A stretch of 64,000 nucleotides of DNA from Cenococcum geophilum (lineage: Eukaryota): the NCBI GenBank assembly GCA_050273025.1, contig CP158635.1, forward strand, positions 5,022,001 through 5,086,000, written 5' to 3'. The translations under genes and the position numbers were made by a program. Positions 2,085-55,260 of this stretch are shown here, one piece after another (within the stretch, counting starts at the first letter, position 1; each line of letters opens with the position of its first letter). The notes below the pieces were generated by a model, which saw only the letters and a list, made by a program, of their open reading frames with translations, searched no databases and had not been told where the DNA came from.

Positions 2085-3035
2085 GTAGTAGTAGATTTAA
2101 TTTACCGTCCGACCCGGTCCCCCTAATGGGTCCACGCAGACTAATTCCTATAGGAAAAGCTTATATTACACTAAGAAAACCTATTTTTTTTGGGTGAATA
2201 AAAAACCTCCAAGGGAAACGTAAGAGGTAATACTTCTAGATAGCATCCGTACTACATTAACGGGAGGAGAAAAACACCATCAGGTTGCTGCTTTAAGACT
2301 TCCCTTACGCGAGAGTGTCTAAAATGCCTGTCTTGCCCTTGTCTGCCATTTAAACCATTTTTACTACGTTTGTGTATTGCCTGTATAAAGTTATATGCCT
2401 ATCCCTAGCTCCTTTTCTAAGTCTCCTGTAAATATCTCCTAATAATAATAACGCTTGCGCTCCGCCTGGGCTTGCATGCTAAGGTCTCTTATCTATTCCT
2501 TTATTAAAAGGTTTCTATAATAGGGTGTATATAACTTAGTATTGCTTTTGCCCTAGGTCCTAACCCTAGGCCCTTATACCTATTTATAAGGTATAGGAGG
2601 ACGCTCTAGTATTTAATAGGGGTAACTAGTCCCTATAACTAGATACCTAGGTTACTAGGTAATGTTAAAATAGGGGGCTTCTGCTACGCTTAAGGCGCGG
2701 ATTGTTTGCGTATATATGTGGTTGCTATATAGTGTATATAGTATTTATAGGAGGGAGGGGGTACGCCGGAGGGATAATTGCTTGTTAATTCGAATGACCG
2801 AACGTGTATAATAGACGTAGTAGCTATATTCAAACTTTTTGCTAGGGCTTACCCCCCAGTAAAAAAATTTCACACTACTACCACTACGTCGCTGCGCAGG
2901 CGCTGCGCAGCTGTATATATGTCTCTGCGTTTGCTCTAGTAGTCTATTGACACGATCTAAATAGAATATTAATAGTAGCTGCTAGGTTCCCGGGCTTTAC
3001 CACGTGGAGGTGCAGAGGCCGATTTCATTAAGCCC
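2085..3035 (-). mobile_element. Non-autonomous ribozyme-capped SINE-like retroposon, copy 1 (family a)
   Basis: TSD TTTAGAATTAATTA at 2071-2084 and 3036-3049. (CTA)n tail, LINE-like 3' stem-loop, collinear with 54115-55022, no recognisable ORF. Confidence 0.85.
2923..3035 (-). ncRNA. HDV-like self-cleaving ribozyme (predicted)
   Basis: P1 GGGCTT/AAGCCC, P2 CTCTGC/GCAGAG, P3 ACC/GGT, L3 TCCACGT, J1/4 GGG, long P4 hairpin, J4/2 GCAAAC. Confidence 0.8.
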
Positions 3036-3528
3036 TTTAGAATTAATTATATAGTAATCTAGTAGGGTTATATAAGGAATCTTTAGCCCTTACTCGGGCT
3101 TACAGCCCTCCTATTCTCCTTGTCAGTTCGCCTCTATATTAGGGTATTACTATACCTACTCTTTACCATATTATCCTCTTCTATTAATTCTTTTATTACT
3201 TAAACCTAGCCTACCTACTCCCTACTATATACCTGGGCAATATGCCTTATATATAGACCAATCCTATACTCTTTTAGGTAGTAGCTAACAGTAAGCTAAA
3301 GGCTTCGCCCTTAAGCAATCTTATAATCCTTTACTTTTTACCTAAGATAACCGCGTATACTATAGAGTAGGTATACTAGTAGATGTCTAGTAGATGGCAT
3401 CCGTATATAACGGTTTATTAGAATATAGATTAGGTCCTCTACTTTACCTAAAACAATCGCGTATACTATAGAGCAGCTATATTAGCAGATATCTAGTAGA
3501 TCGTATCTGTATATTATAGTTAGATAAA

Positions 3529-3869
3529 TATAACAGAATCCCCCAAGAGGTACATATCCAATAAGACGGTAGGAGGTTTTATTTATATCCCATCTATGTT
3601 CCAGAAGACATAGTCAGACAGGTTAGGGGCAAAAGGTTTTACTAGCGTCTTAGAAGAAATATATAGGAAGCTAGTTCCCCTCTAGAGAAGAACTAGCGAT
3701 TAGTCTCTAAATAGAAGTGGTTAGAAGCATTTGTCCTTTAATATATAAAACTTATTCTACCTTTAACTTACCTTTAACTTACCTTTAACTTACCTTTAAC
3801 TTATCTTCTACTTACCGGTAATACTATTAATTAGATAATTATACGTTCCGGTTAGGCTAGCCTCTTATA
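3529..3869 (+). repeat. 5' LTR of gypsy A
   Basis: Direct repeat of 13883-14212. Contains four 11-bp CTTACCTTTAA units versus three in the 3' LTR. Confidence 0.93.
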
Positions 3870-6800
3870 ATTCTAATTACTTACAATCCGTTAGGAACGT
3901 ATAGCTATTAATTAATAATAACGGACTATACTCCTATACCCTATAAAGCAACGCCCTTACCGTAAGAGGCTTAAAGAGTCTCCCTAGAGGAGCGCATTCC
4001 CTTTTCCTATAAAGAAGCTACGGCTAGTCTATCTAACCTTATAAGACCCTTAGAAACGATTACCACTAGGGAGTTATTAGAGCGGTCGCTATATAAGACC
4101 CTATAAAAAATAAAGGAGTTGGAGATATAATTAAGATAAGCATATTAAGACTACTAAGAACAATTATAAGGATAATTAGGGGAAGTATAGACACCCTAGA
4201 CACGAAGCGGACTTAAAGGGGTAACGCTATACTATACTATAATGTTAGAAAAACCTAAATTCCGCATAAAGGAACCTAATAAGTACTATAGTGATAGTCT
4301 TCGGAACTGTAATTATTTTATCTAATAATGCGAAACTAAGTTTTAGCTAAATCCGAAACACTACTCTAATAAGTATAATTAGACACTAATTGCTTCTACC
4401 TTCCTACGTAGCACTATTAAGAGTTTATAAACACGCTATGAGAAGAAACTTACTATACTTCTTAAATTTAGCGAACTTAGGACCTGGTTAGTTAATTAGA
4501 TCTAAGACCCTACTAATTAAGGGATAGACTATAACTAGCGATACCACAACACCAAATAGTGGGATGGTTAGACTGTGGTCTAGTTTATAAACTACTTAGA
4601 AGAACTAGAAGACAATATACCCTACTTAGATCTATGGGATAACGCTATATGACTTTACTAGCTACTTACTAAGCTATAACCTAAGATTTAATAGGCTATA
4701 TAAGAGAAGGGCAAAATTCCTACCTCTTAAGAAAAGCTTATCTCTAAAGCTACTTAGATTAAGAGTGCTAAAAGAGACTATTTAGGTAAGTAAAAGAAAC
4801 GAGACGCTAATAATAAAGAGCGTAGGACTAGACCTAGCTTTAATAATAAGGGCAGATTTCGACCTAACCGCTCTATAGAAGGATAATATAAGTAGGCCTT
4901 ATAGCCCTAAAGCAATACTAGTTAACCCTAAAATAACAATAGGCAGAGACCTAATTCGTAGGAGGGGAACTAGGAGATACACACCTGTTATAACTGTAGT
5001 AAGAAGGGCTATATAAGCCGCTTCTGCTGGTAAAAGAAGTAAGAGTTAGCCTAATTGGGAAAAGAGATAGCCTAGTAGATCTTTACTCCCTTACACTAGG
5101 CTAGTAAAAGAAGAAGGGAGTAAACTACCGTATAGTTATTCCTGTCTCTATTTAAGTTAATAATAAATAGGTAACGTAAGACTACCTTATAGACAGCGGC
5201 GCGAGTATAGGGTTTATTTCTTAATTACTAGTAAAAGAATTAGATTTGGACCTTAGCGGCTCGTAGGTGCGCACCGTTTAAAGCATTAGAGGCTACTAAA
5301 TTCCATACTATAGGGAATAGGCTTTTTCCGTGGCCAGCTAGGACCGCAATAGTCTATGGGACACGCAGGAGATACGCTTCTATGCCGCAGAAATTAAGGG
5401 GTATAACCTTATTTTGGGATACCTATAGCTTCGCCAAGTTAATCTAGACATTAATTAGCCTTCGGCCTTATATTAATATCGGAAGTCTTAACCGCGCATT
5501 ATAGTTAAAAATTAAGAGACTTTCTTAAACTATATATAAGAAGAAGGGTGGGTATATACTATATATGCTACTCTTAACACTAAGAACGGGGACATAGGAT
5601 ATTTATTTTTGGATATCCGGCTATACACAGTTAAGGAACTAGAGATTCTATAGGAATATATAGACTTAGAGAATATTTCTAGTAAAGAGGCTGCACAAAC
5701 CTTACCTAACCCTATATTAGTTAAGTATAAGATAGATATAAGGGACAAATAACCTCCTTTTAGACCACTATATAACCTGTTAGAAAATAAGCTAGTGGTA
5801 CTACGTTAATATATAGTAGACAATCTTTAGAGAGAATAGATTTGGCCCTTTATAAGCCTAGTAGGGGCACTAATTATATTTATACCTAAAAAGAATAGGA
5901 CCCTTTACCTCTATATCGACTATCGGGCGCTAAATAAGATTACTATAAAGAATTGCTACCCGTTACCCTTAATAGGGGAGCTTATTAATAGGCTATTGGG
6001 CGTAAAGATATTTATAAAATTAGATCTAAAAAATATATACTATTAAATCCGGATTAAAGCCGGTAATAAGTAGAAAACGGCGTTTTAAATACGGTATGGC
6101 CACTTTAAGTACCTAGTAATGCTATTTAGGCTTACCAACACACCAGTGATATTTTAGGCCTATATTAATAAGGCATTATTAGGCCTATTAGACACAATAT
6201 ATATAGTCTACCTTAATAACATTATAGTCTACTCTAATAACTATAAAGCACATATACACTATGTGTAAATGGTATTAGAAAAACTGCGGGAATATAAGCT
6301 CTATATAAACCTAAAAAAGTGCATATTCTATACTACTAGCATTAATTTTTTAGGCTTTATTATTAGCGTTAACGGAGTATTAATAGAGAAAAGTTGGGTA
6401 GACGCTATTAGGGAATAGCTCTACCCTATAATATTTAGAGAAGTATAGGTTTTCTTAGGCACGGCAAACTTCTACTAAATGTTTATTGTTTACTACTTAT
6501 AAGTAATACTCCTAATTACTAATCTACTAAAAGGATCTAAGAATGGTAAGAAGTTAGGACCCTTTATATTTAGGAAAACTGCTAAGCAGGCTATAGACCG
6601 GTTAAAGGATTTATTTATATTAGCGCCTATCCTAATATACTTCTACTAGGAGCTATGTATATACCTTAAAATAAATGCATCCGGCTTTACCCTAGAGGTA
6701 ATTATATCTTAATTAAAAGACGGAAAATAGCATCCTATAGCGTTTTGGTTAAGGAAAATAACCCCTATAGAGTAGCGTTATATAATGTATAACTAGGAGC

Positions 6801-8329
6801 TACTCGCGATAATCGTAGTAATAAAGCACTGGCAATATTATTATATAGGAAGTAATTATCCTATTAAAGTCCTTATAGACTATAATAACCTAGAATACTT
6901 TATAACTATAAAGGTATTAAGCAGTTAATAAGCAAGATAGGTAAAGGCACTATTGTAGTATAATTTTAAAATTATATACCGCCTAGGGAAAACAAATCCT
7001 GCTAATAGGTTATTAAGACGTTTAGATTATAAGACAGGGAGAATCTAGAACAGTATAGGGGAAATAATCCCCATATTATAAAATTTGCTTAAGAAGAAAG
7101 AAGATTCTTTCCCTAAAACTATAGAATTTTATAGTAGGGTAAAGGTCCTAGTAATACAGCTATAAAGTAATATAATTATAAAGCCGTAGGATATAGTTAT
7201 AGACTAGGTTATAAACTAAGTAGATATTATAAAGTTAGCGTATCCTAGAATTAGCGAGAATTCTACGAGATATGCTAGAGGTGCTGCGGCACCTTTAACT
7301 TAACGGCGCATTAGCTACAAGTTTTCGGATCTAAGGGGGATAGGCGAGATACCTATCCGCAGTATAGCATACTATATAATAGTAGAAGAATCTACTAGCA
7401 CTAATAGTTTAAAACGTCTCGTGCTATACCTTAAGTCTATAATAGCGGTAGGCAAAATAAAAGCAAGTAATCTATATAAAACCTTTTTAGATTTTCTTCT
7501 TTAAGCTTAATAAAGGGACGCCTTCGCCTTTAGGGAAAGGTGGAAAGATATAGTAGAGACTAACTTAGCCGGAGTTACTAAGAAGCTATAGTAGTAAGAC
7601 TAAAAGGGTCTATTACGCTTTAAGGGTGCTATATATATCCTAAAGGACTAAGCGATTTAAGACGAAATTCTAAAGGTCTTCTATAATAACCCTTTTAGGG
7701 GTCACTATAGTGCCAACAGAACCCTTAAGGCTGTTTAAAGGAAATACTTTTAGGATAGAATGTTTAAAGAGGTTAAGGACTATATATTAAGGTATAATAC
7801 GTGCTAAAGGATATAGATATCTAGGCATCGCCTATACGGCGAGTTATTAGTGCTTCCTATTCTATAGGGACCTATATTAGAATTAACAATAGCTTTTATT
7901 ATAGGCTTACCCCCTACTAAGATAAGAACTAGAGAGGTTACTAATACTATCTTAGTAATCGTTAATAGGTATATAAAGTTTTTAGAATACTTTACTATTA
8001 TAATAATAATTACGGTAGCAGAACTGGTAAACCTGTTTTTAGAATAGTGCATCGGCAAAATATTGTCCCTTGTAAATGACCTCAGCTGCTAGAAGTTAGC
8101 GTCGTTGGCGGGCTATTAAGGGCATTAACCAACTTGACAAACCAGCCTATGTTAAGTTCATTTAATACGCAGCCTGTGCGCAGCCTACGCGTAGCCTACG
8201 CATAGCCTGCGTAACCTGCGCAACCTATACAACCTGCGCAACCTATATAACTTATAATTTTAGATAATAAAGGCTACTTTAAAGCCGTTTATAAAGCTAT
8301 TAAGATAAATTGTATACACTTCTTTATAT

Positions 8330-8800
8330 AATCTATTATGTCTATATCTGCTACCTGTCTGCATTATCTACCTATCTATATTACCTACCTATCTACATTA
8401 CCTACCTGTCTGTATTACCTACCTGTCTATATTATCTACCTATCTATATTATTTACCTATCTATATTACCTACCTATCTATATTACCTACCTGTCTATAT
8501 TGCCTACCTATTTATATTATCTACCTATCTATATTATCTACTTATTTATATCGCCTACCTATCTATATTATCTACTAGTCTGCATTATCTACCTATCTGC
8601 ATTACCTACCTATCTATATTACCTACCTATTTACATTATCTACCTATCTACATTATCTACCTGTCTATATTACCTACCTATCTACATTACCTACTTGTCT
8701 GCATTACCTACCTATCTATATCGCCTACCTATCTGCATTATCTACCTATCTATATTGTCTACCTATCTATATCGCCTACCTATTTGTATCTGCCTATAGT
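8330..8800. repeat. Degenerate CTACCTATCTATATTA-type tandem array
   Basis: Visible periodicity. Explains the low-complexity ORFs at 8310-8816. Confidence 0.9.
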
Positions 8801-9279
8801 GTCTAATTCAATTTAGGGGAGAGGTCGGCCCGATTAAAGGCTTTGATTGATTCGAATCGTTCTCCATGGCCGTTCGCTGGCTATATATTCGAATAGTGGT
8901 CATCTAAGGTGCCTCCCTAGGAGGCCTTGATTCGATTCGATTCGGTAATAGGCTCTGGATTAATTTAATTGATTAATTGAATCGTTCGTGGTGTTCGCTG
9001 GCTGGTTATTTAAACGGTCGTCGTCTGGTTCTAGTAACGGTCATCTACTAGTTCTAGCGACGGTCGTCTGGTTCTAGCGACAGTTATCTAGTTCTGGCGA
9101 CGGTTATCTGGTTCTAGCGACGGTCGTCTGGTTCTAGCAACGGTTGTCTAGTTCTAGCGACGGTCCTCTGCTAGCTGCCGTTTCAGTGCCTCCTAAAATA
9201 GGGAGGATGTAAGGAAGGGTAAAAAATAAGGTAGCTGCAAAGGGGGTAACTTGGCAGAGGCACGTGCGGAGACCCAATA

Positions 9280-9620
9280 TAGAGCTTCGTATAGAGCCTC
9301 CGTATATAGAGCTTCGCGCAGAGCCTTGTGCAGAGCCTCTATATATAAAGCTTCGTGTAGAGCTTCGTATAGAGCTTCGTGCAGAGCCTCGTGCAGAGCC
9401 TCTGTACGTAGAGCTTCGTGCAGAGCCTTATGTAGAGCATCTATACGCAGAGCTTCGTGCAAAGCCTCTATCGCAGAGCTTTATGCAGAGCTTCGTGCAG
9501 AGCCTCTATCGCAAAGCTTTGTGCAGAGCTTTGTGCAGAGCCTCGTGCAGAGCCTCGTGCAGAGCCTCGTGCAGAGCCTCTGTCGCAGAGCTTCGTGTAG
9601 AGCTTCGTGTAAAGCCTCTT
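9280..9620. repeat. ~12-bp GCAGAGC(T/C)TCGT tandem array
   Basis: Visible periodicity. Explains the ORFs at 9193-9635. Confidence 0.9.
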
Positions 9621-9679
9621 GAGCATATAACTTAAAAATAATATATTATATTACCTTAATTGTATATTAAGGAATATAT

Positions 9680-9920: not shown

Positions 9921-11183
9921 TAATTATGCGAAACGCGCTTAACAAAGTCGACTTGAAACCCAGCCTGCGAATATTTTCCCGATATGGCTCTTATTTAGTA
10001 CACTAAGGGGAATCGTGTCTAATAGAGGTACCGTATTTAACAGTGCATTTTAGTCTTTATTCTGTCTCTTATTAAAAATATAGTAAAGAATAAGTACTGC
10101 CTTCTACCTATAAATAAACGGGCAAACAGAGCGTCTAAATACGTTATTAGAACACTACCTCCGCTACTATATCAATTATTAATAGGATAATTAGACATTA
10201 TAGTTAGCTTTAGCGCAGCACGTATATAACATAAGTATCTATAGCAGTATAAAAATGACCCCTTATAAAGCATTATTTGGGGTAAAAGTAAATAACCCCT
10301 AGAACATTAAGGACATTGTTCCTAAAAGAGAGGCACTAGCAGCGTCTAAAAGAATTAAGCAAATAAGAATTCGCAGAAAGGAACTTAAAAAGCACTTACT
10401 AGACGCCTAGGCTGTGTAAAAAAGGTACTATAACGAAAAATATATGCTAAAAGAATTTAAGATAGGAGACGAAGTCTTACTATTTATAAAAAATATCCAA
10501 ACAAAACGCATTAAGAAGAAGCTGGATTACCAGTGGCTTAGACCCTTTAAGATAGTTAAAAAAACTAAAGAAAACCAAGCCTATAAATTAGAATTACCGA
10601 AATCTTATCTAATATATTTTATATTTTATATTTCCTTACTAAAGCTATACTGGAGAAAAGATAGTGCGGAACCGCCCCTATCTAGAGAAATTAATAGGGA
10701 ACTAGAATAGAATATAGAAGACATTTTAGACTAAAGATGGCGCCAGAAAAAGCGCGAATTTTTAGTTTATTAGGAAGGATACTTTTAGGTATATAATAGT
10801 TAGGAACCTAAGGAGTACCTTTAGCTGGGATATAATACTATAATTAAAACCTTTCTAAGAACTAAAGGTAAAGACTTAGAAATAGTTCCGGATATACTAT
10901 AGGTAAAGTAATAGGGAAGACCCTATAAATTAAAACTATAAAATTAAGTATAGGTATTAAGAACGGAAACGTTTTGCTATTATAATAGGGATCCTAAAAT
11001 CCTATAAGAGGAAGCCTATAGGGATCTATAGGAAAACTACTAGGGATACTATTTAAAGAAGACGCTGTTTAAGAAGGAGTAGTAGTACTATAAGAAGTGG
11101 CCTTAGGGATTTAGAAAGATCCCCTAGGGATAAAAGGAGAGTATCTAGCCTAGTACCAGAAATACGCAGTAAAGTTAATAGTA

Positions 11184-12197
11184 GTAGTAATTCTTTAATT
11201 AACGTCTGATACGGATCCTACTAGCCCACGCAGACTACTCCGTTATAGGGGGAAAACTTATAATTTATATAAAGAAAACCCTGCAGTTGGGGGAAGGAAA
11301 AACCCTATAAGCCACCTTAGTAGGATAAAAAAACCTAAATTGCCATATTTGCACGTAGCAGCGGCCCTACGGGCCTATAGCACGTCCTCCTCCTTAGATG
11401 TTTTAAACTCCTTAGGAACTACTACTTCCTTCTCTAGCTTATTAAAGCTGGGGTTCACTATATCCCAGCTAGGCCCTGCTAATTAATTGCTGTGTCTTAT
11501 TGTCTTATTCCGTATCTTACCTATCCCCTATATACTATCTCTTATAGACTATTACCATATACGCCTTGCCTCCCCCCCCCCTAGAGCTATTAAAGGCGTA
11601 AGGGGGATTTATTTGTTCTAACTACCGTAATACTAATAAGCGAGCGGGATATATTGTGTATTTGGGTATCTTTTATGCTTAGGCCCTAGCTAGGCCCTTT
11701 CTAAGGGCACTACTCCGTTAAAAGGAGACAGGGAAAACCGTGGGTCATAATCTAGGCTGCTAGGTAGTATTCGGTAGTTAAAAACGGCGAGTAACCGCAT
11801 ACTCCGCGGGCGATTGCCCTGGGGGTTAGGAGGGGCCGTATATTTACTCATTCGTTTATTTACTCCGCGTTCACTCATTCATTAATATAAAAGGTTGTTA
11901 ATGCTTTCTATTAGGGGTTAGGGGATGCTATTAAATGCTATGCATCCATATTGGATCGTATAGGTGCCTTAGATAGGAGAATAATATAGTAGTTATTGTA
12001 TTATAGAGGGCCAACAGTAGTGGTTTTTAAGATCTCACCATCCGAAAATTTTTCACCACCGCCCTTAACGCCCACAACCACCACCAGGTCCTGTCCACAC
12101 GCTATACGACGTCTCTGCGTTGGCTTTAGATCTAAACTTTAAAGACTAGGTTCGTAGCCGTCACCGCGTATAGGTATAGAGTCCGATTTCGACGGCC
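11184..12197 (-). mobile_element. Non-autonomous ribozyme-capped SINE-like retroposon, copy 2 (family b)
   Basis: TSD GTAAAGTTAATAGTA at 11169-11183 and 12200-12214. (CTA)n tail. Last ~60 nt closely match the LINE 3' end at 843-900. Confidence 0.85.
12113..12197 (-). ncRNA. HDV-like self-cleaving ribozyme (predicted, 85 nt)
   Basis: P1 GGCCGTC/GACGGCT (7 bp, G1.U wobble), P2 CTCTAT (RIP of CTCTGC)/GCAGAG, P3 ACC/GGT, 7-nt L3, J4/2 GCCAAC. Confidence 0.8.
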
Positions 12198-12449
12198 TGG
12201 TAAAGTTAATAGTATAAAGAGGAGCAAAAGAACAGCCTATAAAGAATTAAAAATTTTAAGGAATTATAAGGCACCTATAGAAATACTACCCGTTTATTAT
12301 ATATAGGGATTATAATAGTATACTGCGTTTATATAGATTGTCACTAAAGCTTAGAATAAAGGTATCCCTAAAGTATAAAGTTAATTCCTAATAATAGGGC
12401 ATTTTAGAGGCACCTAAGAGGCACTATATAAAGCTATTCTATAAGAAGA

Positions 12450-14999: not shown

Positions 15000-17177
15000 T
15001 GCCTTCTGCGCTTCTACTACTAGTCCGTTTATATCCTCCTTAAGTGGTTATACTACTACTATATAAGGTCGTTAATGCTATCTCCCTTCTCTCTATCTTT
15101 ATCCTTAAAGATATCCTATATCTTTAAGTCGTTAATTAGAGGTATAGCACTCCCATCTATAATTTAATAACCTTTTATTAGATCTTTATATTTTAATTAT
15201 TTTTTTTATTTAGTAAAACTATACTGTCCTATTCTCGTTATATAGAGCGAGAGTATTAGTTTATATTATAATTGCAACTCTATTTAGTTACTAGCCTTCC
15301 TCCTATACTAAGTATATATGTTTTATTATTCTTTATAGGCGTCTAATACCTTATATAATTTATTATAGGGTCTTATATTTAATCTAAGGCCTCTTACCTT
15401 AAAGGTAAACTCGCCCTAGCCCTTAAAGAGCTTAAACGTTCTTATATCGCTGGGTAGGGGGCCTTTAAGGCCTAAATAGCTGCGTCTACTTAGCTAACCT
15501 ATCTTAAAAAGGGTTATAAAAAGGACTATTTAAAGGAGTAGCGTCTAGCTAAGTAGGGTCTTTATAAACTTAAACTAGGGGAGGCTAAAAGGGTTTATTT
15601 AAATAAAGAGGGAAATAACTCTAAGTAGATTAGCAGATATTCCTCTTAGGTCCCTCTTAGCTAATTTGTTTTACAGTAATTCTTCTATAAGAGTATATAT
15701 ATTAGATCCCGCCACGCTTGCGAATAAGTTCGCAAGCACTCTGTGTCTTTTTGGCCGTATAGCGACGTAGAGGCGGGATACGTTATATCTTCCTTATTAC
15801 TATTTTCTAACCTAATTTCTTCCAATGCCCGCTAAGCCCTACTATATACGTCCACGTTACCGTAGGTAGAAACATTACCAGGAAATTATTCCTTATAATA
15901 GCTAAGTGTAGAGGCGGTAGAGGAGAGCCGTTATAGCGCGCGTAGCGCGCTAGTATTGCGACTCTGCGGTATTAAGCCTATGACGCGTATAAGTATCGCC
16001 CTTAATAATACTAGGAGTTCTACTACCCCTACTTAGGGCTCCTATTATACTATTTAGGGAGGCTATTAAGGGAAACTAGGATATAAAAACCGCCTAACGT
16101 ATAATTACCTAGCTAATAGCTAGGCCTAAAACTAGACTTATCTAGCTAGTTAATGTAAATATGCCCTAGGCGTATAATAGGATACCCTTAGGCTTATATT
16201 AGCTCTAAGTCTATAAAGACACGGCGAGGGTATAGGGAACCTCCTTTTATAAGAACTTGTTAAGGTTAAAACGTTATAAACTCTGTATATAAAACTTATT
16301 AAGGCCTCTCTAAGAGCCTATCTAGTATACCTAAGTAACTTAAAAAAGGGTCTTAATAGGCATAGTATGCGCAACCTAGACAATAGCGATGTAATAGTAA
16401 CGCGATAATAACTAAACAGCTATAAGGGTTATTTTAACCCTTACTTGGGTATATCGCATAAGGGCCGCTTAGGGGTAGCTAAGGCCTAGCCTTCGGCTAG
16501 GCTTGGCACCTCCTTATAAGCACCTCGGGCTTACAGCCATTTCCCTCCTTATCGGTTTGTCTTCGTACGAGGCTATTGCTATACTCTTTACTATATCGTC
16601 CTCTTCTATCGACTCTCCTTATAACTTATACTCGGCTTACCTGCTCTTTACTATACACCTATATAATATACCTTACAACAGCTTAGTAAGGTAGGTTACT
16701 ATAAGTAGCAATATAGGTAAAGCTCTAGGCAGTAGAATTATAGGCTAGCTTTAATAGCCCTATAGTATTATAAGGCGACTTATAGGAGGGGTTTAATAGG
16801 TATAGTATATATAACCTAACGTATATATATAGGGGAGGCTTTAAAGGAAATATAGGCCATTTAGGTAAAGACTTAATAGTTAAAAATATAGGCTAGTATA
16901 TAAAAAAAGGGGGATATAAGCTTAGTTAGTAGGAGAGAGTAAAGTAGGTCACCTAACGTAGGACTTAGTATTTATAGGCCCCTCTTATAAAACACAGTTA
17001 GCCTATTATAAGGAAACCCTTATAGGTAATATAAAATAAAAACTAGTGGTATATAGGGTATTATACCCCTATATTACTACTAGCCTCTTATAGGGTATAG
17101 TGCGTAGTAGCTATTACTAGCTTTAAGGACCTTACCCTTTAACTAAGCTTTAGTCCTTAGTATACCTAATATATAAG
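15000..17177 (-). pseudogene. RIP-degraded tyrosine-recombinase-like gene (boundaries approximate)
   Basis: De-RIPped motifs in order: RGP(Q)ILS ~16984-16964, SRY(RH)IAI(A)(W) ~16405-16375, H-x7-YA ~16200-16170. Confidence 0.4.
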
Positions 17178-19082
17178 CATTAGCATTTTATTAGGGTGCT
17201 AAGATCCTAGAGGCCTCCTGATAGGATTTTAACTTTCTTAGAGGTCCTAATCGTCCTAGTAGGCTCCTAGTAGGCTCCTAGCAGGATTTTAATTTTCCTA
17301 ATTATCCTAGTTGTCCTAACAGGATCTTTAATTTCCTAATCGTCCTCTTATAGTCCTATTAGGGTCCTAATAGGAAACTAGTATTTCCTAATCGTTCCTA
17401 ACAGGCTCCTAGCAGGATTTTAATTTTCTTAATTATCCTATTAGGTTCCTAACAGAATACCCCTAAGCGACACCCCTTTTAACCCCCCCCTAAAGCGATA
17501 CCTCCTATACACACCCCTTAAGATACCCCCCTAATGCGACACCTTCCCCACTGTAATACCCCCCTAATGGGATACCTCCCCCCTAATGCGATACGTCCCT
17601 ATATACGCGTACGCGCAATATATAGTGCTATCGGGTCCCCACTATATTCCTAATAGCCTACACATACCTCTACTAAGTTACCTCCTTTATAGTCACCCTA
17701 TTCTTTACCCTTCCTTATATCCTCCCTTAGGAGGTACTAGAATAGCAGCCAGTAGAGGACCATCGCCAAAACTAGACGACCGTCGCCAGAACTAGACGAC
17801 CGTCGCCAGAACTAGACGACCGTCGCCAGAACTAAACGACCGTCGCCAGAACCAGACGACCGTCGCCAGAACTAGACGACCGTCGCTAGAACTAGACGGC
17901 CGTCGTTAAAACCAGACGACCGTTATAAGAACTAGACGATAACCTTTTAAATAACCAGCTAGCGAAGACCACGAACGATTTAATTAATCAATTAATCGAA
18001 TTTGATATTAGCCTATTACCGAATAGTATTAAGGCCTCCTAGGGAGGCACCCTAGACGACTACTGTTTAAATATATAGCTAGCGAACGGCTATAGAGAAT
18101 GACCTGGATTAATTAGAGCCTTTAATTAGGCCGACCTCTCCCCTAAATTAAATTAGATACTAACATAGGCAGGTAAGTAGGTAGGTAGGTAGGTAAGTAG
18201 GTAGGTAGGTAGGCAGGTAGGCAGGTAAGTAGGAGAGGACTATTTTTAAAACCAGACGATAATCGTTTAAACGACCAGCCAGCGAATACCACAATTGATT
18301 TAATTGATCGATTAAATCGAACCAGAGCCTTAATATTAGCCTATTACTGAATTAAATTGAATTAAGGCCTCCTAGGGAGGTACTCTAGATAACTACCGTT
18401 TAAACGTATAGCTAACGAACGCCCATAGAAAACGATTTAAATTAATATAATTAATCGCAATTAAATTAAGCAGAGCCTTTAATTGGGCTGACCTCTCCCC
18501 CGAATTATAGATATAGACAGGTAGGTATAGATAGGTAGGCACAGATAGGTAGGACAGGCAGGTAGGTAGGTAGGTAGGCAGGCACTAGGCCTAGTTAGGA
18601 AATCAGCACACGGCCGGCGGATTATTGGGAACACCGCCAATTGACGATTTGGAGCCTCCGCGAGAGGCTCCTTAGTTAATCGCCTAACGCCCAAGCGATT
18701 GTAGAGCTCTATAATAGACACAGGCGGTAGATAAGAGAAATTAATTTAGATTATTTAGATTATATATAATTAAATTAATTATATATTTTTTAACTAGCTG
18801 TAAATACTAGAGTATTAATATACCTTATTTTTAAATCTAGAATTTTTATTATTGTCCTAATGGTCCTAATGGTCCTAATGGTCCTAATAGTCCTAAAGGT
18901 CTTAGAGGTCCTAGAGGTCCTAGAGGTCCTAAAGGTCCTAATAGTCCTAGTGATCTAGGCGACCTCCTAATAGGTTCCTAATAGGATGCTAAGTGTAAGT
19001 GTCTCCTAGAGCTCCTAATAGCCCTAATAGGAGCTATTAGGAGCTGTTAGTACTGTTAGGAGGCACATATATTTTGCTAATA
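17178..19082 (-). mobile_element. Non-autonomous TIR element (variant 2), heavily RIPped
   Basis: Inverted copy of 31151-33014. Termini CATTAGCATTTT...TTTTGCTAATA. Flanks AG/AA (2-bp TSD with one G>A change). Confidence 0.85.
17765..17940. repeat. 20-bp tandem repeat GACCGTCGCCAGAACTAGAC, about 8-9 copies
   Basis: Head-to-tail with no spacers. The same unit occurs at ~9020-9170 and ~32260-32325. Confidence 0.92.
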
Positions 19083-31150: not shown

Positions 31151-33014
31151 CATCAGCAAAATGTTTATGCCTCCTAACAGTACTGACAGCTCCTGACAGC
31201 TCCTGACAGCTCCTGTCAGGGCTGTCAGGAGCTCCAGGAGACACTCACACTCGGCATCCTGTCAGGAACCTGTCAGGAGGTCGCCCGGACCACCAGGACC
31301 ACCAGGACCTCCAGGACCTCCAGGACCTCCAGGACCATCAGGACCATCAGGACCATCAGGACCATCAGGACAACAATAAAAATTCTAGATTTAAAAATAA
31401 GGTATATTAACACTCCAGTATTTGCAGCTAGTCAAAAAATACAAAATTAATTTTAATTATATATAATCTAAATAATCCAAATCAATCTCTCCTGTCTACC
31501 GCCTGTGTCTGTCATGGAGCTCTACTCGGGCGTCGGGCGATCGACTAAGGAGCCTCTCGCGGAGGCTCCAAATCGTCGATCGGCGGTGTTCCCGATGATC
31601 CGCCGGCCGTGTGCTGATTTCCTAACTAGGCCTAGTGCATGCCTGCCTGTCCTACCTGTCTGTGCCTGCCTGTGCCTGTCGTGCCCACCTGTCTATCCTA
31701 CCTGTCTGTATCTGTAATTCGGGGGAGAGGTCGGCCCGATCGAAGGCTCTGCTTGATTCGATTGCGATTGATTGTATTAATTCGAATCGTTCTCCATGGG
31801 CGTTCGTTGGCTGTACATTTGAACGGTGGTCGTCTGGGGTGCCTCCCTAGGAGGCCTTGATTCGATTTGATTCGGTAATAGGCTGATATCGAGGCTCTGG
31901 TTCGATTCGATCGATCGATCGAATCGATCGTGGTGTTCGCTGGCTGGTCGTTCAAACGATTATCGTCTGGTTCTGACGACGGTCCTCTCCTACTTGCCTG
32001 CCTACCTGCCTGCCTACCTACCTACCTGCCTGCCTGTGTCAGTATCTGATTTAATTCGGGGGAGAGGTCGGCCCGATCGAAGGCTCTAATTGATCCAGGT
32101 CGTTCTCTATGGCCGTTCGCTAGCTGTACATTCGAACGGTAGTCGTCTAGGGTGCCTCCCTAGGAGGCCTTGATACGATTCGGTAATAGGCTAATATCAA
32201 ATTCGATTAATCGATCAATTGAATCATTCGTGGTCTTCGCTAGCTGGTTATTTGAAAGGTTGTCGTCTAGTTCTTATAACGGTCGTCTGGTTCTGGCGAC
32301 GGTCGTCTGGTTTTAGCGACGGTCCTCTACTGGCTGCCGTTCTAGTGCCTCCTAAGGGAGGATGTAAGGAAGGGTAAAGAATGGGGTGACTGCAAAGGGG
32401 GTAACTTAGTAGAGGCACGTGTAGGCTATTGGGAATATAGCGGGGACCCAATAGCACTGTGTGTCGCGCGCACGCGTATATAGGGTTGTGTCGCATTAGG
32501 GGGGAGGTATCCCATTAGGGGGGGTATCACAGTGGGAAGGGTGTCGCATTGGGGGGGTGTCTTAAGGGGTGTGCATAGGAGGTGTCGCTTTGGGGGGGAG
32601 GGGGGTTAGGAGGGGTATCGCTTAGGGGTATCCTGTCAGGAACCTAACAGGACAAATAGGAAAATTAAAATCCTGCCAGGAGCCTATTAGGAATGATTAG
32701 GAAATACTAGTTTCCTATCAGGACCCTAACAGGACTGTAAGAGGATAATTAGGAAATCAAAGATCCTGCCAGGAGCCTATTAGGAACGATTAGGAAATAC
32801 TAGTTTCCTATCAGGACCCTAACAGGACCGTAAGAGGACAATTAGGAAATCAAAGATCCTGCCAGGAGCCTATTAGGACGACTAGAACGATTAGGAAAAT
32901 TAAAATCCTACCAGGAGCCTACTAGGAGCCTACTAGGACGATTAAGACCTCTAGAAAAGTCAAAATCCTATTAGGAGACCTCTAGGATCTTAGCACCCCA
33001 ACAAAATGCTAATA
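31151..33014 (+). mobile_element. Non-autonomous TIR element (variant 2), lightly RIPped, in the gypsy D RT
   Basis: Termini CATCAGCAAAATGTT...AACAAAATGCTAATA with a TA duplication. 9-10-bp subterminal repeats (CAGGACCAT, CTCCTGACAG) and a duplicated core. Confidence 0.88.
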
Positions 33015-33587
33015 TAGTTAACCGTATATACGTTATCTATTTAGATAATATCTTAATCTACTTAGAAGATAAGGATTAACATAAGTAATATATCCGCGAA
33101 GTACTGGAACATTTAGATAATTAGGGCCTCTACGCTAAGGCGTTAAATTATATCTTTAACACTAAGTAGGTTAAGTTCCTAGGTTATATTATAACGCCTA
33201 TAGGTATAGTTATAGACCTAGTACGGGTATAGATAATTTAGGAGTAGCCAGAGCTAGAGAGCTATTAGGATATTTAAATGTTCTTAGGCTTTACCAATTT
33301 CTATAAGCGCTTTATTTATAACTACTTAGACGTCACCTAATACCTATCTAACTATATTATAAAAGCTTCCTAAGACCTAATCTAAGGAGTAAAAAGCTTA
33401 AAGGCGGTAAGGGAAAAAACTAAAAAGGGACTAACTAAATAGTATAAGCTATAGTTATAGCCCAGAAAGGTTTAAAAGGCCTTTTAAAAACTTTACGCAA
33501 AGTTTATAAAAGCTCTATTACTACAGCATTTTAACCTAGATTAGCTATTAATAATAATTATTAATGCATTAAATTTTGCCTTTATTA

Positions 33588-39154: not shown

Positions 39155-42100
39155 TTTTGCCTTTATTAGTATTCTACTATAACCTAATAGGTATCCAGAT
39201 GCTACCTAGCTCTATTAAAGACCAGTAGTATTTTATAGCAGAAAATTCCAGGGACCTAAAGTTAGGTATTATACTCACGATAAGGAACTACTAGCTATAG
39301 TTAACTGCTTTAAATAGTGGTAATACTACCTTAAGCACGCGAGCTATACCACTTATATACTCTTAAATTACTATAATCTACGCTACTTTATAACTATAAA
39401 GGAGCTTATACCTTAATAAGCTAAATAGGTAAAGGAGCTTATATAATTTAATTTTAAGATTAAATATAAGTTAGGGAAAAACAACCCTACTAATAGACCG
39501 TTATAACGGCTAGACTATACTAAAGGCTTTAAAATAGGAGAAGGAAAATAGATAATAGATATCTTACTCCCTATATTATAGAATAAGCTCCGGGTATAGG
39601 ATGCTTAAGCACCTATAGCTCTATACACTAAGTCTTAGGCAGTGCAAGCCCTATTAGTTTCTACTAACGTTCCAGCTAGTACCTAGTCTGTTACTAATAA
39701 GGGTCTAAATATACCTAGATAGGACATCCCTAATATATTCTTGGAACCTAGTAATATACTATCCCTAATTACTAAGCTATCCCCTTAAACCAATAGCGAA
39801 GCTATTAAGCAATTGGAACTCAGAGCCCTATAATAACTAAAGGACTTTAACCTTATAGCGGCCTTCCTAACGTATACGCATTAAAGAGTTATAAGATTTA
39901 TAGTACTATTTAGTCTTATACTTAAAGTAGTATAGGACAAAATAGCTTTTATTTAGGAACTATCTAAAAGGTTAACGGATCTCATCTATAAGGTATAATA
40001 GAGGGACGCTTCCTATACTATCCTTAATGCGGAAGTAGACCGGAAATATAATAAAAAGGAAGCTGCTAGGCGCTACTATTAGGAACTAAACCCAATGGGC
40101 CTACTATATAAAGGTAGTAAGGTTTGGGTGCTATAAGAAGCAAATCTACAATAGAAGATTCTTATAAAGAATTATAATAATCCTCTAGGCGGCCACTATA
40201 GTTAAGTAAAAATAGTAGAATTACTTTAGCGCAAATACTATTGGCTAAGGCTTAATTAGGAAGTAAAGGAGTATATTAGCTATTATAAGAAGTGTTAAGT
40301 ATATAAGATCCGCAGGCACAAGCCATAGGGTCTACTTAAATTAGTTCCCCCCACTAGTAAGCTATAGCAATATTACACTATAGACTTTATTACAGATCTC
40401 CTGCTATCTAAAGATAGCTAAAGATAAATATATAATTCGGTCCTCATACTTATTAATAGGTTTTTAAAGTACGTTTAATATCTTCCTATTAATAAGACGA
40501 TTAATATACAAGCGCTAGCCTACCTAATTAAGGAGAAATGCTTTCTTAAAGTAGATTAGCCATACTTTATTATTACTAATAGGGGCAGCATCTTTATAAG
40601 CCAGTACTGGTTAAACCTATGCTTCTATTTAAAGATAGACTACCGTTATAGTACAGCTTTTTATTTATAAATAGATAGGTAGATAGAACGCTAGAACTAG
40701 GAACTAGAGTTTTACCTATAGATATATTTAAACTACTAGCAAGATAACTAGTATAAGCTACTTCTGTACGCGGAGTATACTTACAATCTAAAATAATATG
40801 CATTATATAAGTATGCACTAATCCAGATTACCTATGGCGTTTAATTATTTAGGTTTAATAGTATATCTAATAATTACTAGCTAAGGCTGTATAATTAGTT
40901 ATAGGATCCTACCAAGAAGTTTAAGGATATCTACTAAAGAGTATAAGGATACCTTTAGGAATAGGAGGAGTAATAGAAGTATATAAAGCAGAGCCTATAA
41001 AATGCCTAAGAGTAGTAAAGACTTTGGTATAACTATTAGCACTAAGATAAGCATTTTGGAGTAGGCGATAAGGTTCTATTATATTTAACAAATATTAAGA
41101 CCTATTAACTATTAAAGAAGCTTAATATAAGATACCTAGGTCCCTTCTAAGTTAAGAAACGAATTAGTAAGCTAGCCTATTATCTCTAACTACCCCCATC
41201 TATGGCTTATATGCATTTAGTGTTTTATATAAACCTACTAGAGCTATAGCATAGACCATTACTAGAAAAGAACTTCCGTCTAGGCCCAATTAAATACCCT
41301 AAGGTAGTAGGCGAGCGGTACGAGGTTAAAGCTATACTACGCTATAAGTCTGTTAAGAATAAGCTTTAATTTGAAGTTAAATGGCTAGGCTAGCCCGCTA
41401 AGGACTCTATATAAGAACTAGAGAATTACCTTAATTATTGCAAAGATATTCTAAAAGAGTATTAGGACCAAGGTCTATAATCTACAAGTTATAAAAAGCG
41501 CTCTAATATTATAGTGTTATTGCGACCTATAAAGAAAGCTTATAAAAAGAGTAAATAGGTTAAATTGGATATAGAATAGATAGGCTCCGGAAACTGTAGG
41601 GATAGGGCTACGGCCTAAGGCAGGGTAGGTCCTTAGCCTTTTTACGTATATAGTATAGAGTTAATAGGGCATTTTGCTAGAATTGTATTCCTATTTATTA
41701 ATCTATACTAGGAATATTGTTCTTAGGGCTTCTAAGCCCTTTCTAAAAGCCTTATAAGGCCTTTTCAAGCACCTAATTAAGGTCCTTAATTGCTACTACG
41801 TATAAGAACGAATCCTAAAAGTCTAAACCATAAATGCCCAATTTAAAAAGCCACTATGCCTTATTATTAGGAGTAGGATCAGTATCTATTGGGCTACTAA
41901 GTAATGGCTGATAAGAATGGGATCTAGATCCCTTAGTAGGGGTATAAGTAGGTATTAAAATAGGGGTAGGACGATAAGGTGTAGCTAGAGCAGAGACTCT
42001 TAAACGCTTAATATTAATATTAGGTCCAAACTAATACTAATAAAGCTCTTGCGGCGTAAGCTTATAGTTAATAAAGACATAATTAAGCCTAAAATGAATA

Positions 42101-51500: not shown

Positions 51501-51664
51501 ATAACTCTCTTTATCAACGTGCACGAATATCACTTGTAGTGGTACGTATGCAGTGTTGAAGTTGGTAGTTAATTATTGTTTAGAAGAAAGGGGTTACTCC
51601 AAGGTCAGACAGTTAGTCTCACTTCGTAGTCCCGTGACTACGTCACGTAATTAACGTTCCGACA
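45502..51664 (-). mobile_element. Full-length Ty1/copia element
   Basis: 171-bp LTRs 45502-45672 and 51494-51664 (TGTCGG...CCGACA), TSD ATAAA. Minus-strand order: gag knuckle CYVC ~49600, protease ~49140, integrase ~48750-48100, RT (KPLY, YDPCLL) ~47400-46850, RNase H (ASFANN) ~46410. Confidence 0.95.
51155..51460. repeat. Four imperfect ~55-90-bp repeats in the copia leader
   Basis: GGCGATCTAACGCGTCAACAGTTAAGTTGATACGTGGTTTTAAGCTTTG-like units. Confidence 0.8.
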
Positions 51665-54106
51665 ATAAAGGAGATAGAAAGTATATAGCTTTCTGTATAT
51701 AATAGAGACTTTTTAAATACCTAGTAATACTATTTAGTATAAAGAACGGTTCTAGTACGTTTTAGTAATATATTAATAATATACTTCGCGAATTCCTTAA
51801 TATATTTATTACCGCGTATATTAATAATATTTTAATCTATTTGTTTTTACCTTCTAAATATTAAAAGCACGTTTAAATAATCCTTAAACGCCTATAAGAC
51901 GCGGGCTTATAATGCGATATTAAGAAATATAAGTTCTATATATCTAAAGTTATATACTTAGGCCTAATTATATCCCATAATAGAATTAAAAGAGACCCTA
52001 AGAAAATTGCTATAATTATAAACTAGGAAAGTCCTAGTGGTATATAAGATATTTAAGAATTTCTAGAATTCGCAAACTTTTACCGTTAATTTATTAATTA
52101 CTTCTTAAAAATTATTTAGCTATTAGTAAACTTAATAAGGAAGAATATAAGATTTAAATGGACTACTAAATGCGAATAAGCTTTTAATAACCTAAAATAT
52201 TATTTTATAACTACTTTAATTCTTACCTACTTTAATCTAGACCTTAAATGCATTATTAAAACAGACTCGTCTGATTATATATTAGAAGGAGTGCTATCGT
52301 AATATAATAAGAACGGCGAGCTGCGCCTAGTAGCCTTTCTCTCCTAAAAACTTACCCCTACTAAATTAAACTATAAGATATATAATAAGGAACTACTTAT
52401 AATTATTAGATGCTTTAAATAATAGCGTCTAAAACTTAAAGGATTGTTATTCCTAATACGCATACTAATGGACTATAAAAACCTGCAGTACTTTATAACT
52501 ATAAAGCAATTAATATAGCGCCAAATTTATTAGGCCGAATACCTTTTATAATTTAACTTTAAGATTATATACTAACTTAGTAAACTTAATTAAAAGCCTA
52601 ACTTATTAATATAATAATTATAGGACTTACCTATAAACGCCTCTAATAAATGGATTATAAATTAATTAAAAATTCTACTGCCCCCTAAATACTTTAAGAG
52701 GCTACGCCTTATATTTTTAAATACGGAGCTTAATAGGAATAAATTAGAAATTAATAAGTGGGATATAAAAATTAATAAATTAATAGAGTAAAAATATAAG
52801 AATAACCCCTAGGTAGTAGATATAATTAAAGTAATTTAAATAAGGAAATAGTAATATAAGTATATTATACTCGCTAAATGCAAAATCCGTAATAATCGGT
52901 TATACTATTAATAGAAGATAGTAATCCCGAATTCTAAACCCTTATAATTTAAGATACTTAAATTTATATACGATTCCCCTATAGTAGGGCACCCTAGCTA
53001 TATAAAGACCTATAAGATTATCTAATAAGTATATTATTGGCCTATAATGCACGACTATATATAAAAATATGTTTAAGTATATAGAATGTATATATATAAG
53101 AAGACCTCTTATATAAAAAAGTAAGAAGTACTTTAACTATTACTAATTCCAATATAAAGATAGCGAGATATCTTAATTAACTTTATAGTTAACCTACTTA
53201 ACAGTAATAGGTTTACGAATATTATAGTAGTTATTAACCGTCTTATAAAAATATAATATATGATTCCTATAGACTTAATTAATGTAATATTAGTAGCTGA
53301 ATATTTTATTAAGTACGTCTTTAAGCTATATAGACTTTCTAACTTAATAATATCTAACTATGGAAGCTAGTTTATTTTAGACTTCTAGTAAGCCCTATAT
53401 AAACGATTAAGTATATAAATATAACTCTTAACTACATTTTATTTAGAGATAGATAGTTAAACTAAAATTATAAACGCAATTATAGAACAATATCTATAAA
53501 TATACTACTCCTACCTATAAAATAACCAGGAAAAGTAGCTACCTTTAGCTAAGTTTACTGCGAATAATATAAGAAATAAATTAATAGGTGTAACGCCGTT
53601 CTACGTAACTTACGGATAAGATCCTTAACTTAAATTTAAACTATAACCCAAAATTAATATAATAGGACCTATAATTAAAAGGATTTAACTAATTAACATA
53701 TATAACTTTGCTAATTAAATAAAGTAGTTAACGGAACTATTATAAAGTAAATTAGTATACGCTTAAACGGTATAGAAATAGCATATAAATAAAGGACAAG
53801 ATCCCGTATAGAACTTTAAGGAAGGTAATATAGTTTACCTAAATATATAAAACCTAAAGACTTAATAACCCTTAAAAAAAAACTAGACTAGAAGTTTACG
53901 GGCCTATACTAAATTAAGAAGAAACTAAGCCCGTACGCTTATAAGCTTAAACTGCTAACTAAAATAAAAATATATCTAACGTTTTACGTAAACTTATTAT
54001 AACCCTTAAAAAGTAAACCTATAACTTATAAAGTGCTACCGCTACCTTTTATAATTATTAATAACGGTAATAGTTCTTACTTTATTAACTTAATTAATAA
54101 TATATA

Positions 54107-55260
54107 TATATATAAGATTCAATTTACCGTCCGACCTGGTCCCCCTAATAGGTCCACACAGACTAATTCCTATAGGAAAAACCTCCTTACTAAGAAAAAC
54201 CCCATTTTTAAGTGTACAAAAAACCCCCAGGGGAGACGTGAGAGGTAATATTCCAGATAACATCCATACTACATTAACGGGAGGAAAAACACTGTTAGGT
54301 TGCTGCTTTGAGACTCCCTTTATATAGGAGTGTCTAAATACCTATCTTGCCCCATCTGCTATTTAAACCATCTTTGCTATATTTATATATTGTTTATCTA
54401 AGTTATATGCCTATTCCTAGCTCCTTTTCTAAGTCTCCTATAAATATCTCCTAATAAATAACACTTATATTCCGCCCGGGCCTATATACTAAGGTCTCTT
54501 ATCCACTTCTCTATTAAAGGGTTTCTACAACAGGGTGTATATAACTTAGTATTACTTTTGCCCTAGGGCCCAAGCCTAGGCCCTTATACCTATTTATAAG
54601 GTATAGAAGGATAATCTAGTATTTAATAGGGGGCCCAATCCCTATAACTAGATACTTAGGTTACCGGATAATATTAAAATAGGGGGCCTTTGCTACGCTT
54701 AGGGCGCGGATTGCTTATATATGTATATAGATACTATACGGTGTGTGTAGTATTTATAGGAGGGAGGGGGTACGCCGAAGGGATAATACTTGTTAATTTA
54801 ATGTCTAAATATGTATATTAGAGATATAGTAGCGGTGTTTAAACTTTTTTGCTAAGGCTTACCCCTTAGTAAAAAATCTTTGCACTACCACGACGTCGCT
54901 GCGCAGGCGCTGCGCAGCCGTATATACGTCTCTGCGTTCGCTCTAGTAGTTTATTAACACAATCTAAATAGAACATTAATAGTAGCTACCAGGTTCCTGG
55001 GCTCCACCGCATAGGGGTACAGAAGTTGCTTTTCTGGAGTCGTCTTTTTAACTGGTCTGGCGCTAAGGCCTATAAAAACTCTGCTGTTCTAACGGCGTCA
55101 AGGGTTAAGTATTCGAAGGCCCCCTCTAGCCATAACGTAACGCTGCTGCATCAGTAATAGACGAGATCCTCTCTCTTAGCTTAACCATGCGGACAAGATG
55201 AGACGGAAAGGAACCCCCATAGGACCGTATGGGTCAGATCTCGATTTTAGTGTTCCTTTC
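54107..55260 (-). mobile_element. Ribozyme-containing SINE-like retroposon, copy 3 (family a, with ~220-nt 5' extension)
   Basis: TSD TTAATAATATATA at 54094-54106 and 55261-55273, splitting the gypsy E chromodomain. Collinear with 2094-3015. Confidence 0.85.
54930..55041 (-). ncRNA. HDV-like ribozyme (predicted, RIP-damaged, internal)
   Basis: P1 GACTCC/GGAGCC, P2 TTCTGT/GCAGAG, P3 ACC/GGT, L3 CCTATGC, J4/2 GCGAAC. Confidence 0.68.

Follow-up and report, generated by a model that had tools for sequence, protein, structure and literature searches.

Three insertions and a LINE in a repeat-rich window

The window analysed here is a 64-kb stretch of the Cenococcum geophilum genome (positions 5,022,001 to 5,086,000 of contig CP158635.1, assembly GCA_050273025.1), a mosaic of repeats with 35% G+C in which seven stop-to-stop open reading frames (ORFs) of at least 120 amino acids (aa) occur in all, the longest of 185 aa. 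It holds three insertions of about 1 kb, here called E1, E2 and E3, which we examined as likely relics of a family of non-coding retroposons that begin with a fold of the hepatitis delta virus (HDV) ribozyme type, and two copies of a long interspersed nuclear element (LINE), LINE F (Table 1). A preliminary description of this DNA had reported three ORF-less insertions with target-site duplications (TSDs) and simple-repeat tails, and this was borne out, as all three lie on the minus strand, the TSDs measure 13-15 bp, and no stop-to-stop ORF of at least 120 aa overlaps any of them. Mismatches between the window and public reads are overwhelmingly transitions, which suggests the signature of repeat-induced point mutation (RIP), the fungal C-to-T mutation process that attacks repeats.

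Table 1. Positions of the retroposons, their structural parts and LINE F in the window; model R1, whose scores are given, was built from relatives of the E2 (GGCCGTC) subfamily
Feature	Position	Strand	TSD and tail	Description
E1	2085-3035	-	TTTAGAATTAATTA at 2071-2084 and 3036-3049, 14 bp, or 15 bp counting C at 2070/3035; (TAC)n at 2085-2094	Non-coding retroposon, RIP-decayed, GGGCTYC subfamily
E1 HDV-like ribozyme fold	2923-3035	-		Rfam drz-agam-1 match; model R1 match, 40.2 bits, E 2e-7
E1 3' stem-loop domain	2101-2144	-		Consensus fold common to the LINE
E2	11184-12199	-	GTAAAGTTAATAGTA, 15 bp, at 11169-11183 and 12200-12214; (TAC)n at 11184-11189	Non-coding retroposon, RIP-decayed, GGCCGTC subfamily
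E2 HDV-like ribozyme fold, short P4	12113-12197	-		Model R1 match, 100 bits, E 6e-21
E2 3' stem-loop domain	11198-11238	-		Last ~100 nt 71-74% identical to the LINE 3' end
E3	54107-55260	-	TTAATAATATATA, 13 bp, at 54094-54106 and 55261-55273; (TA)n	Composite insertion within its TSD
Repeat X	55042-55260	-		Unrelated, 219 nt; 5' end of E3
E3 internal degraded E1-type ribozyme	54930-55041	-		Model R1 match, 22.1 bits, E 0.003
LINE F	33588-39154	-	TAATAAAGGCAAAA, 14 bp, at 33574-33587 and 39155-39168; (ATT)n	5567 nt, RIP-decayed
Second LINE F copy, 3' part	1-912	+		Cut by the window start; 85% identical to 34471-33583; 3' stem-loop at 846-888

E1 aligned end to end with its relatives L030 and L057 at 88-89% identity (element positions 1-936/941 correspond to 3035-2088/2092), and the fifteenth base of its TSD (C, 2070/3035) could alternatively be the first base of the element, G1. 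E2 aligned with L001, L031 and L056 at 82-84% (1-1012 correspond to 12197-11184), with G1 at 12197 and two untemplated bases (CA) 5' of it. E1 positions 19-942 are 82% identical to E3 positions 238-1146, and what E2 has in common with E1 and E3 is confined to the 5'-terminal ~110 nt and a 3' motif. The window possibly holds a fourth, truncated copy at 15684-15785 (minus strand), where 102 nt match the 3' region of L003-subfamily elements with 87% identity.

The HDV-type fold, its relatives and the element starts

The nested double pseudoknot that had been described for the three insertions, with an ACC/GGT P3, a 7-nt L3 and a GCNAAC J4/2, is present in all three window copies. The strict core ACC-N7-GGT-N9-GAACC has exactly three matches in 128 kb (both strands), one per element, and the longer pattern AAATCG-N8-ACC-N7-GGT-N9-GAACC, with up to two mismatches allowed, has three matches compared to none in 100 shuffles. 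Downstream of the core, all three carry GCNAAC-GCAGAG (2934-2923, 12124-12113 and 54941-54930), able to pair with the CTCTGC that precedes ACC. The parts follow one another in the order P1-P2-P3-L3-P3'-P1'-P1.1-P4-J4/2-P2', with five helices in every subfamily; P1 is closed by G1.U or G1-C, P3 has 3 bp, L3 has 7 nt (reading UCCACGC), and a conserved C, the equivalent of C75, precedes N-A-A in J4/2. A canonical nested double pseudoknot of the HDV type occupies the first ~85-113 nt of the elements, and a stem-loop domain the last ~45 nt. In E1, the parts are J1/2 AAATCG, P2 CTCTGC, P3 ACC/GGT, L3 TCCACGT, P1.1 GG and a long P4, followed by J4/2 GCAAAC and P2' GCAGAG; in E2, P2 reads CTCTAT, with two RIP-type changes. 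As the preliminary description had noted, P1 differs in sequence among the window copies with its pairing kept, reading GGGCTTA/AAAGCCC in E1 (6/7 paired), GGCCGTC/GACGGCT in E2 (7/7, the G1.U wobble included) and CGACTCC/GGAGCCC in E3 (5/7).

A descriptor search with Rfam models returned HDV-class matches that start at G1, at scores that all fell below gathering. At gathering score the window had no match, and a pooled 13-kb scan had none at E up to 1. A 301-base scan of E1 gave drz-agam-1 at 3034-2952 with 17.5 bits (E 0.4, model position 1 at base 3034), the sole other match in that scan having an E value of 7.4. Relatives in small-window scans matched drz-agam-1 and HDV-F-prausnitzii, and the GC-rich relative L070 matched HDV_ribozyme with 27.4 bits (E 0.015); the families seen in these scans are all of the HDV class, no family of another kind outranks them, and each match starts at G1. 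Because the models are narrow and the scores lie below gathering, we assign the fold to the HDV class and to none of RF00094, RF01787 or RF02682. Weak matches of model R1 at 41164-41997 (E 0.6-3.8) were rejected, being part of another repeat and unlike the fold. Another repeat family of ~1.2 kb, without a ribozyme, is represented by window 40605-41791 (minus strand) and L027:1016-2197, which are 80% identical; in L027 this repeat adjoins an E1-type element.

Relatives were collected by one scan of metagenome contigs with a 17-base pattern that fixed P3 and left P1, P1', P4 and J4/2-P2' unspecified. The scan yielded at least 120 loci, five of which (L017, L024, L048, L084 and L114) are chance matches in unrelated DNA and 115 of which are clearly homologous, so that the family counts at least 115 relatives. 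Though absent from the search pattern, GCNAAC-GCAGAG is kept in 102 of the 115 listed relatives, the other 13 being cut by the locus end (five) or bearing one or two changes or a deletion (eight). The 7 nt before J1/2 pair with the 7 nt after P3' in every subfamily. The P1/P1' haplotype GGCCGTC/GACGGCT (22 unique sequences with the exact haplotype, 34 over six L3 variants) goes with L3 UGUACGU and P1.1 GU:AC, as does GGUCCUC/GAGGCCU (nine unique with the exact haplotype, 12 over variants), and P1.1 CC:GG is found with both GGGCUYC/GGAGCCC (about 20 unique sequences, L3 UCCACGC) and GGGCGGC/GCCGCCU (L070 alone, L3 UCCGCGC). Several of the differences between subfamilies are transversions on both sides of a helix, a kind of change that RIP cannot make.

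MAFFT right-aligns J1/2 when both P4 classes are combined, and the short-P4 and long-P4 classes were therefore counted apart and haplotypes compared by script. In the short-P4 class (65 sequences), 97.1% of cells are paired compared to 31-45% with slid partners, and seven pairs changed on both sides, a number reached by none of 500 shuffles. In the long-P4 class (41 sequences), 92.8% of cells are paired compared to 34-44% with slid partners, 12 pairs changed on both sides, and pair 74-93 is A-U in 28 sequences and G-C in 13 with no intermediates. The covariation test that had been proposed thus found compensatory changes in P1, P1.1 and P4; P2 and P3 showed none in the short-P4 and long-P4 alignments, P3 being fixed by the search pattern. 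Since close kinship makes shuffle controls generous, the case for covariation rests on the slid controls and on the transversions between subfamilies.

Element starts were surveyed in the 48 loci whose flanks reached at least 1150 nt downstream and 30 nt upstream. Of these, 28 had the 3' module and, immediately behind the tail, a TSD of 10-18 bp; 15 did not match the 3'-module pattern, and five lacked an exact TSD. Clustering of 5' ends at G1, a criterion set beforehand, was found, with the upstream TSD copy ending exactly before G1 in 22 of the 28 copies and within 2 nt in 26. The exceptions are one copy with one additional base, two with two additional bases and one without G1 or with A in its place; two of the 28 have doubtful short AT-rich TSDs further upstream. 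The flanks upstream of G1 are unrelated among copies, and the 28 elements are 894-1023 nt long.

No ORF is conserved in place, frame or strand among the little-mutated copies (46-53% G+C), and tblastn with an intact ORF2 relative matched only LINE F copies (seven loci and the window), none of these matches directly adjoining a ribozyme. Resemblance of the bodies to the LINE is limited to the final ~100 nt and a 29-41-nt patch ~220 nt from the 3' end, and retroposon lengths are uniform whereas LINE copies are graded, indicating that the bodies are not 5'-truncated LINEs. The window is AT-rich and repeat-rich, short motifs abound in it, and a RIP-tolerant pattern gave seven extra chance matches, all of which would suit a chance resemblance or ordinary truncated LINE copies. 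Such an explanation is refuted by the 100 shuffles, not one of which held even a single match of the strict pattern, by at least 115 relatives with covariation, and by bodies of uniform length that resemble the LINE in so small a part.

The subfamilies are mosaic, combining no fewer than two types of ribozyme with several bodies and with three kinds of tail, namely TAC with GGATCCGTATCAGACGTTAAT, TAC with GGGGGACCGGGTCGGACGGTAAA and AAT with GGGACCGCATCAGACGTTAAT. One copy, L028, joins a GGCCGTC-type ribozyme to an E1-type body and the third tail type. The divergent relative L070 (L070:290-1307, minus strand) comes from another metagenome and lies in GC-rich DNA without signs of RIP, with a P1 and P4 of its own; about 1 kb downstream of it a (GGTT)n run is followed by an apparent secreted-protein gene, and no clean TSD was found near that run.

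The term "ribozyme-capped", used in the preliminary description for all three insertions, holds for E1 and E2, where base 1 of the relatives falls at 3035 and 12197, and not for E3, where the fold starts near 55041, 219 nt inside the element (L030 aligns from its base 4 at 55039). The J1/2 of E3 reads AAAGCA, including two non-RIP changes, and its P2 is RIP-changed; these core changes may postdate the insertion. Repeat X, which makes up the 219 nt in front, is 97% identical over 55259-55130 to L057:1-130 in another context, with the same sharp terminus. It has no match to model R1 (E up to 10, filters off) or to Rfam. Crossing complementarities seen by eye in 55150-55260 (GAAAGGAAC/GTTCCTTTC and CGAGATC/GATCTCG, with an 8-bp form CGAGATCC/GGATCTCG in the L057 copy) made a candidate ribozyme at the extreme 5' end of E3, which was rejected given the lack of these matches, a non-canonical P3/L3 and the absence of a C from the would-be J4/2. 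The TSD encloses X and the element together, and the RNA template of E3 must therefore have comprised both. On one of two readings, this template was an uncleaved read-through transcript of a source copy with a dead ribozyme, and E3 may then be a natural failure case in which a copy with a damaged core was retrotransposed with 219 nt of upstream transcript; on the other, the reverse transcriptase (RT) switched template from the ribozyme-defined 5' end onto another RNA. Two further repeat pairs of the window, 3522-3871/13876-14214 and 42795-43141/55829-56175, are each 90-91% identical.

LINE F, the shared 3' domain and transcription

The copy of LINE F at 33588-39154 is full-length, with a 5' end that is common to five copies (the window copy and four relatives), the other copies being 5'-truncated to 350-3670 nt, and no HDV fold was found at this end (GGAGCTCTTGC...) by inspection or with model R1. 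In the LINE F relative L040, RVT_1 matched with an E value of 2e-14 when read through RIP stops (one copy, three frames). The nearest intact relative, P0001 (1026 aa), which has endonuclease and RT domains, is 70% identical over the RT region, and in tblastn its residues 1-1026 are covered by the two LINE F copies of the window together, up to window 37407. Named relatives with Exo_endo_phos and RVT_1, some of them in the ascomycetes Fusarium, Penicillium and Pyrenophora, are ~30% identical, and the nearest LINE F relatives gave no RNase H match. These results identify an endonuclease and RT with ascomycete relatives, and the label "Tad1" that had been given to this LINE is unverified.

Over the last 50-100 nt, LINE F and E2-type elements are 74-83% identical, and LINE F and all retroposon subfamilies have the same three-helix 3' domain, with 11 pairs, two of them compensated, and an outer stem that reads GUCCG/CGGAC or GUCUG/CAGAC. 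The earlier proposal that the 3' ends are borrowed from the LINE thus holds for the E2 type by sequence and fold, and for the E1/E3 type by the stem-loop motif only. LINE F is likely to supply the endonuclease and RT to the retroposons. In L046:6431-7448, an E2-type retroposon with a 13-bp TSD is inserted in a LINE F copy, so that both are nested in the same genome.

The retroposons could have arisen as internally deleted derivatives of an unsampled autonomous LINE that itself bears a ribozyme, in the way that R2 SIDEs derive from R2 and NARTc from L1Tc, an explanation of their origin and not of their mechanism. A ribozyme on the autonomous LINE as well is the pattern in every case described in the relevant passages of PMC6765202, and no LINE matching the E1-type and AAT-tailed 3' ends is present in the 683 kb of sequence compared for tails. 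Against such an origin, none of the 115 listed relatives heads a LINE, though they were collected by the ribozyme pattern, ORF2-like sequence is confined to LINE F copies and never adjoins the ribozyme, and the defined 5' end of LINE F is without the fold. We therefore regard it as possible but rather doubtful. With somewhat more confidence, yet still short of an even chance, we propose that the ribozyme is a free-standing cassette owned by the non-autonomous elements, which would free their 5' end from dependence on a promoter, absent from the mobilising LINE and swapped among subfamilies. A cassette of this kind may have diversified on its own, giving four P1 types and short and long P4, and may have been exchanged by recombination or template switching, for example in L028.

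Transcription was followed in one stranded RNA run (X23) with the same species label. With the first mate on the plus strand, bin means are 21-221 in E1 and 49-1979 in E2, compared to 0.2-21 in the opposite orientation, and, provided that the library was made in the common way, this RNA runs in the minus direction, in sense with the elements. Depth is ~0 in bins 3304-8217 and 10324-11025, despite the high DNA depth of those repeats. Only 27 of 22943 reads are at least 99% alike to the window and most are 85-95% alike, indicating that the RNA comes from other, less mutated copies. Runs of 5-6 T lie inside all subfamilies, which makes RNA polymerase III unlikely. The stretch with the highest coverage in X23 (bin mean up to 1275, same strand bias) and in metatranscriptome contigs is a minisatellite cluster at window 8200-9650, with periods of 17, 20, 12 and 38 nt and related copies at 17179-19081 and 31152-33013.

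Proposed mobilisation and comparison with known elements

We consider it likely that E1-E3 are mutated relics of a large non-coding, non-autonomous family of non-LTR (long terminal repeat) retroposons, ~0.83-1.02 kb long and headed by an HDV-type fold that is predicted to cleave itself. This core of the preliminary description is supported by at least 115 relatives, by their starts at G1, by covariation, by the LINE partner and by strand-specific RNA. An element would be transcribed, probably by RNA polymerase II, from any upstream promoter or from one of its own, and the ribozyme would cut directly 5' of G1, so that the RNA would start at the first base of the element whatever lies upstream. 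The endonuclease and RT of the LINE would recognise the shared 3' stem-loop and the simple-repeat tail, and at the new site the RNA would be copied by target-primed reverse transcription, giving the TSD of 10-18 bp. The terms "promoter-independent" and "read-through" of the preliminary description belong to this proposed scheme.

Several observations weigh against this account. Self-cleavage is predicted from the sequence of the fold, and the Rfam scores stay below gathering for RF00094 (27.4 vs 50), RF01787 (18.6 vs 37) and RF02682 (16.1 vs 44). The copies in the window carry disabling RIP changes and probably no longer cleave. The search pattern was taken from the ribozyme core, so that the conservation of P2, P3 and J1/2 is partly selected, and most of the sequences are close kin, so that the shuffle controls overstate significance. 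In the GGUCCUC subfamily, all compared copies have a mismatch or bulge at P1 position 3. The E1/E3-type tail has the stem-loop motif in common with LINE F and no detectable sequence identity. Finally, 54 RNA molecules end at 12186, 11 nt inside G1 (12197) and not at G1; loss of terminal bases is usual at RNA 5' ends in libraries, and the pile-up fits a defined 5' end and is no proof of cleavage.

Alternatively, the 5' module could be a conserved RNA structure that does not cleave, serving stability, RT loading or nuclear export, with the start at G1 set by an internal +1 promoter as in some LINEs. An internal promoter would simply explain the abundant transcripts, and the Rfam scores below gathering and the additional bases before G1 (two in two of the 28 copies, one in another) also speak for such a module. 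Extra bases at 5' junctions are, however, usual for target-primed reverse transcription, and all HDV helices are kept, including a 2-bp P1.1 that switches from CC:GG to GT:AC, together with the C-N-A-A of J4/2 in 102 of the 115 listed relatives and an L3 that matches HDV-class models. We know of no other function that needs this exact double pseudoknot, and we judge a non-cleaving module unlikely.

A ribozyme-type 5' end on a retroposon has parallels in other organisms. R2/R1 hybrid short internally deleted elements (SIDEs), which combine the ribozyme end of one LINE with the 3' end of another, were reportedly described by Eickbush and Eickbush, and Webb et al. are said to have linked drz-Agam-1 and other HDV-like ribozymes to RTE and baggins elements in 2009. 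The best Rfam match for E1, drz-Agam-1 (RF01787), is almost the same in J1/2 (AAAAUC compared to AAAUCG in E1), L3 (UCCUCGU compared to UCCACGU) and P3 (ACC/GGU in both); it differs in that E1 scores 17.5 bits against a gathering score of 37, that the E1-type P4 is far longer and that its host is an insect. Passages of PMC6765202 place HDV-like ribozymes on R2, L1Tc, baggins and RTE elements and treat ORF-less SIDEs. According to these, R2 and its SIDEs begin precisely with an HDV-like ribozyme, as here, and ORF-less derivatives are mobilised in trans; R2, however, is site-specific in the 28S ribosomal DNA of animals and is co-transcribed with ribosomal RNA (PMC6765202). In the present family, insertion is dispersed with variable TSDs in a RIP-affected fungus, non-autonomous subfamilies are many and mosaic, and no autonomous ribozyme-bearing element was found among the listed loci and the window. 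L1Tc/NARTc of Trypanosoma cruzi likewise comprises non-autonomous relatives and a dispersed LINE whose first ~77 nt contain an HDV-like ribozyme, and the portion of PMC3185411 concerned with it proposes that the ribozyme frees the element from longer transcripts; there the autonomous LINE bears the ribozyme too, whereas LINE F is without it. The schistosome Sm-alpha element is also a short non-coding retroposon with a self-cleaving ribozyme, which is of the hammerhead class, with RNA polymerase III transcription and tandem arrays, in the account that PMC6765202 gives in part.

HDV ribozymes as such are known from fungi. Li and Breaker (2017; PMC5640933) describe, in the sections bearing on this, 230 variant HDV ribozymes from 26 ascomycete species, with cleavage in vitro and "widely variable gene associations", and cite 11 canonical fungal examples reported earlier. 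In their variant, P2 and P3 are separated by an additional base and an E-loop replaces part of P4, whereas here CTCTGC abuts ACC and P4 is a regular co-varying helix, a distinction drawn from the description in that paper only. The main text of PMC5640933 is without the words "transpos", "retrotransposon" and "repeat" and so gives no mobile-element context. Ends of the HDV type are, according to a 2026 bioRxiv preprint, poorly captured by ligation-based methods. Ribozyme-headed non-LTR elements are likewise known, in animals and trypanosomes, and of the combination we found no description: a literature search, with subscription papers, Repbase and Dfam outside it, returned no account of HDV-headed retroposons in fungi.

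For annotators, the ~1-kb non-coding repeats of RIP-affected fungal genomes can be recognised and delimited by a ribozyme fold at one end and a LINE-type stem-loop at the other, and covariation in the fold can be studied at once in over 100 natural variants. The canonical HDV-type fold in fungi gains a concrete role and a genomic context, neither of which we found described before. Ribozyme-defined 5' ends are thereby extended to a dispersed, abundant and transcribed superfamily that resembles short interspersed nuclear elements and whose LINE partner is without a ribozyme. Should the free-standing cassette prove general, such retroposons may be headed by the fungal HDV ribozymes that were reported, in their hundreds, with "widely variable gene associations".

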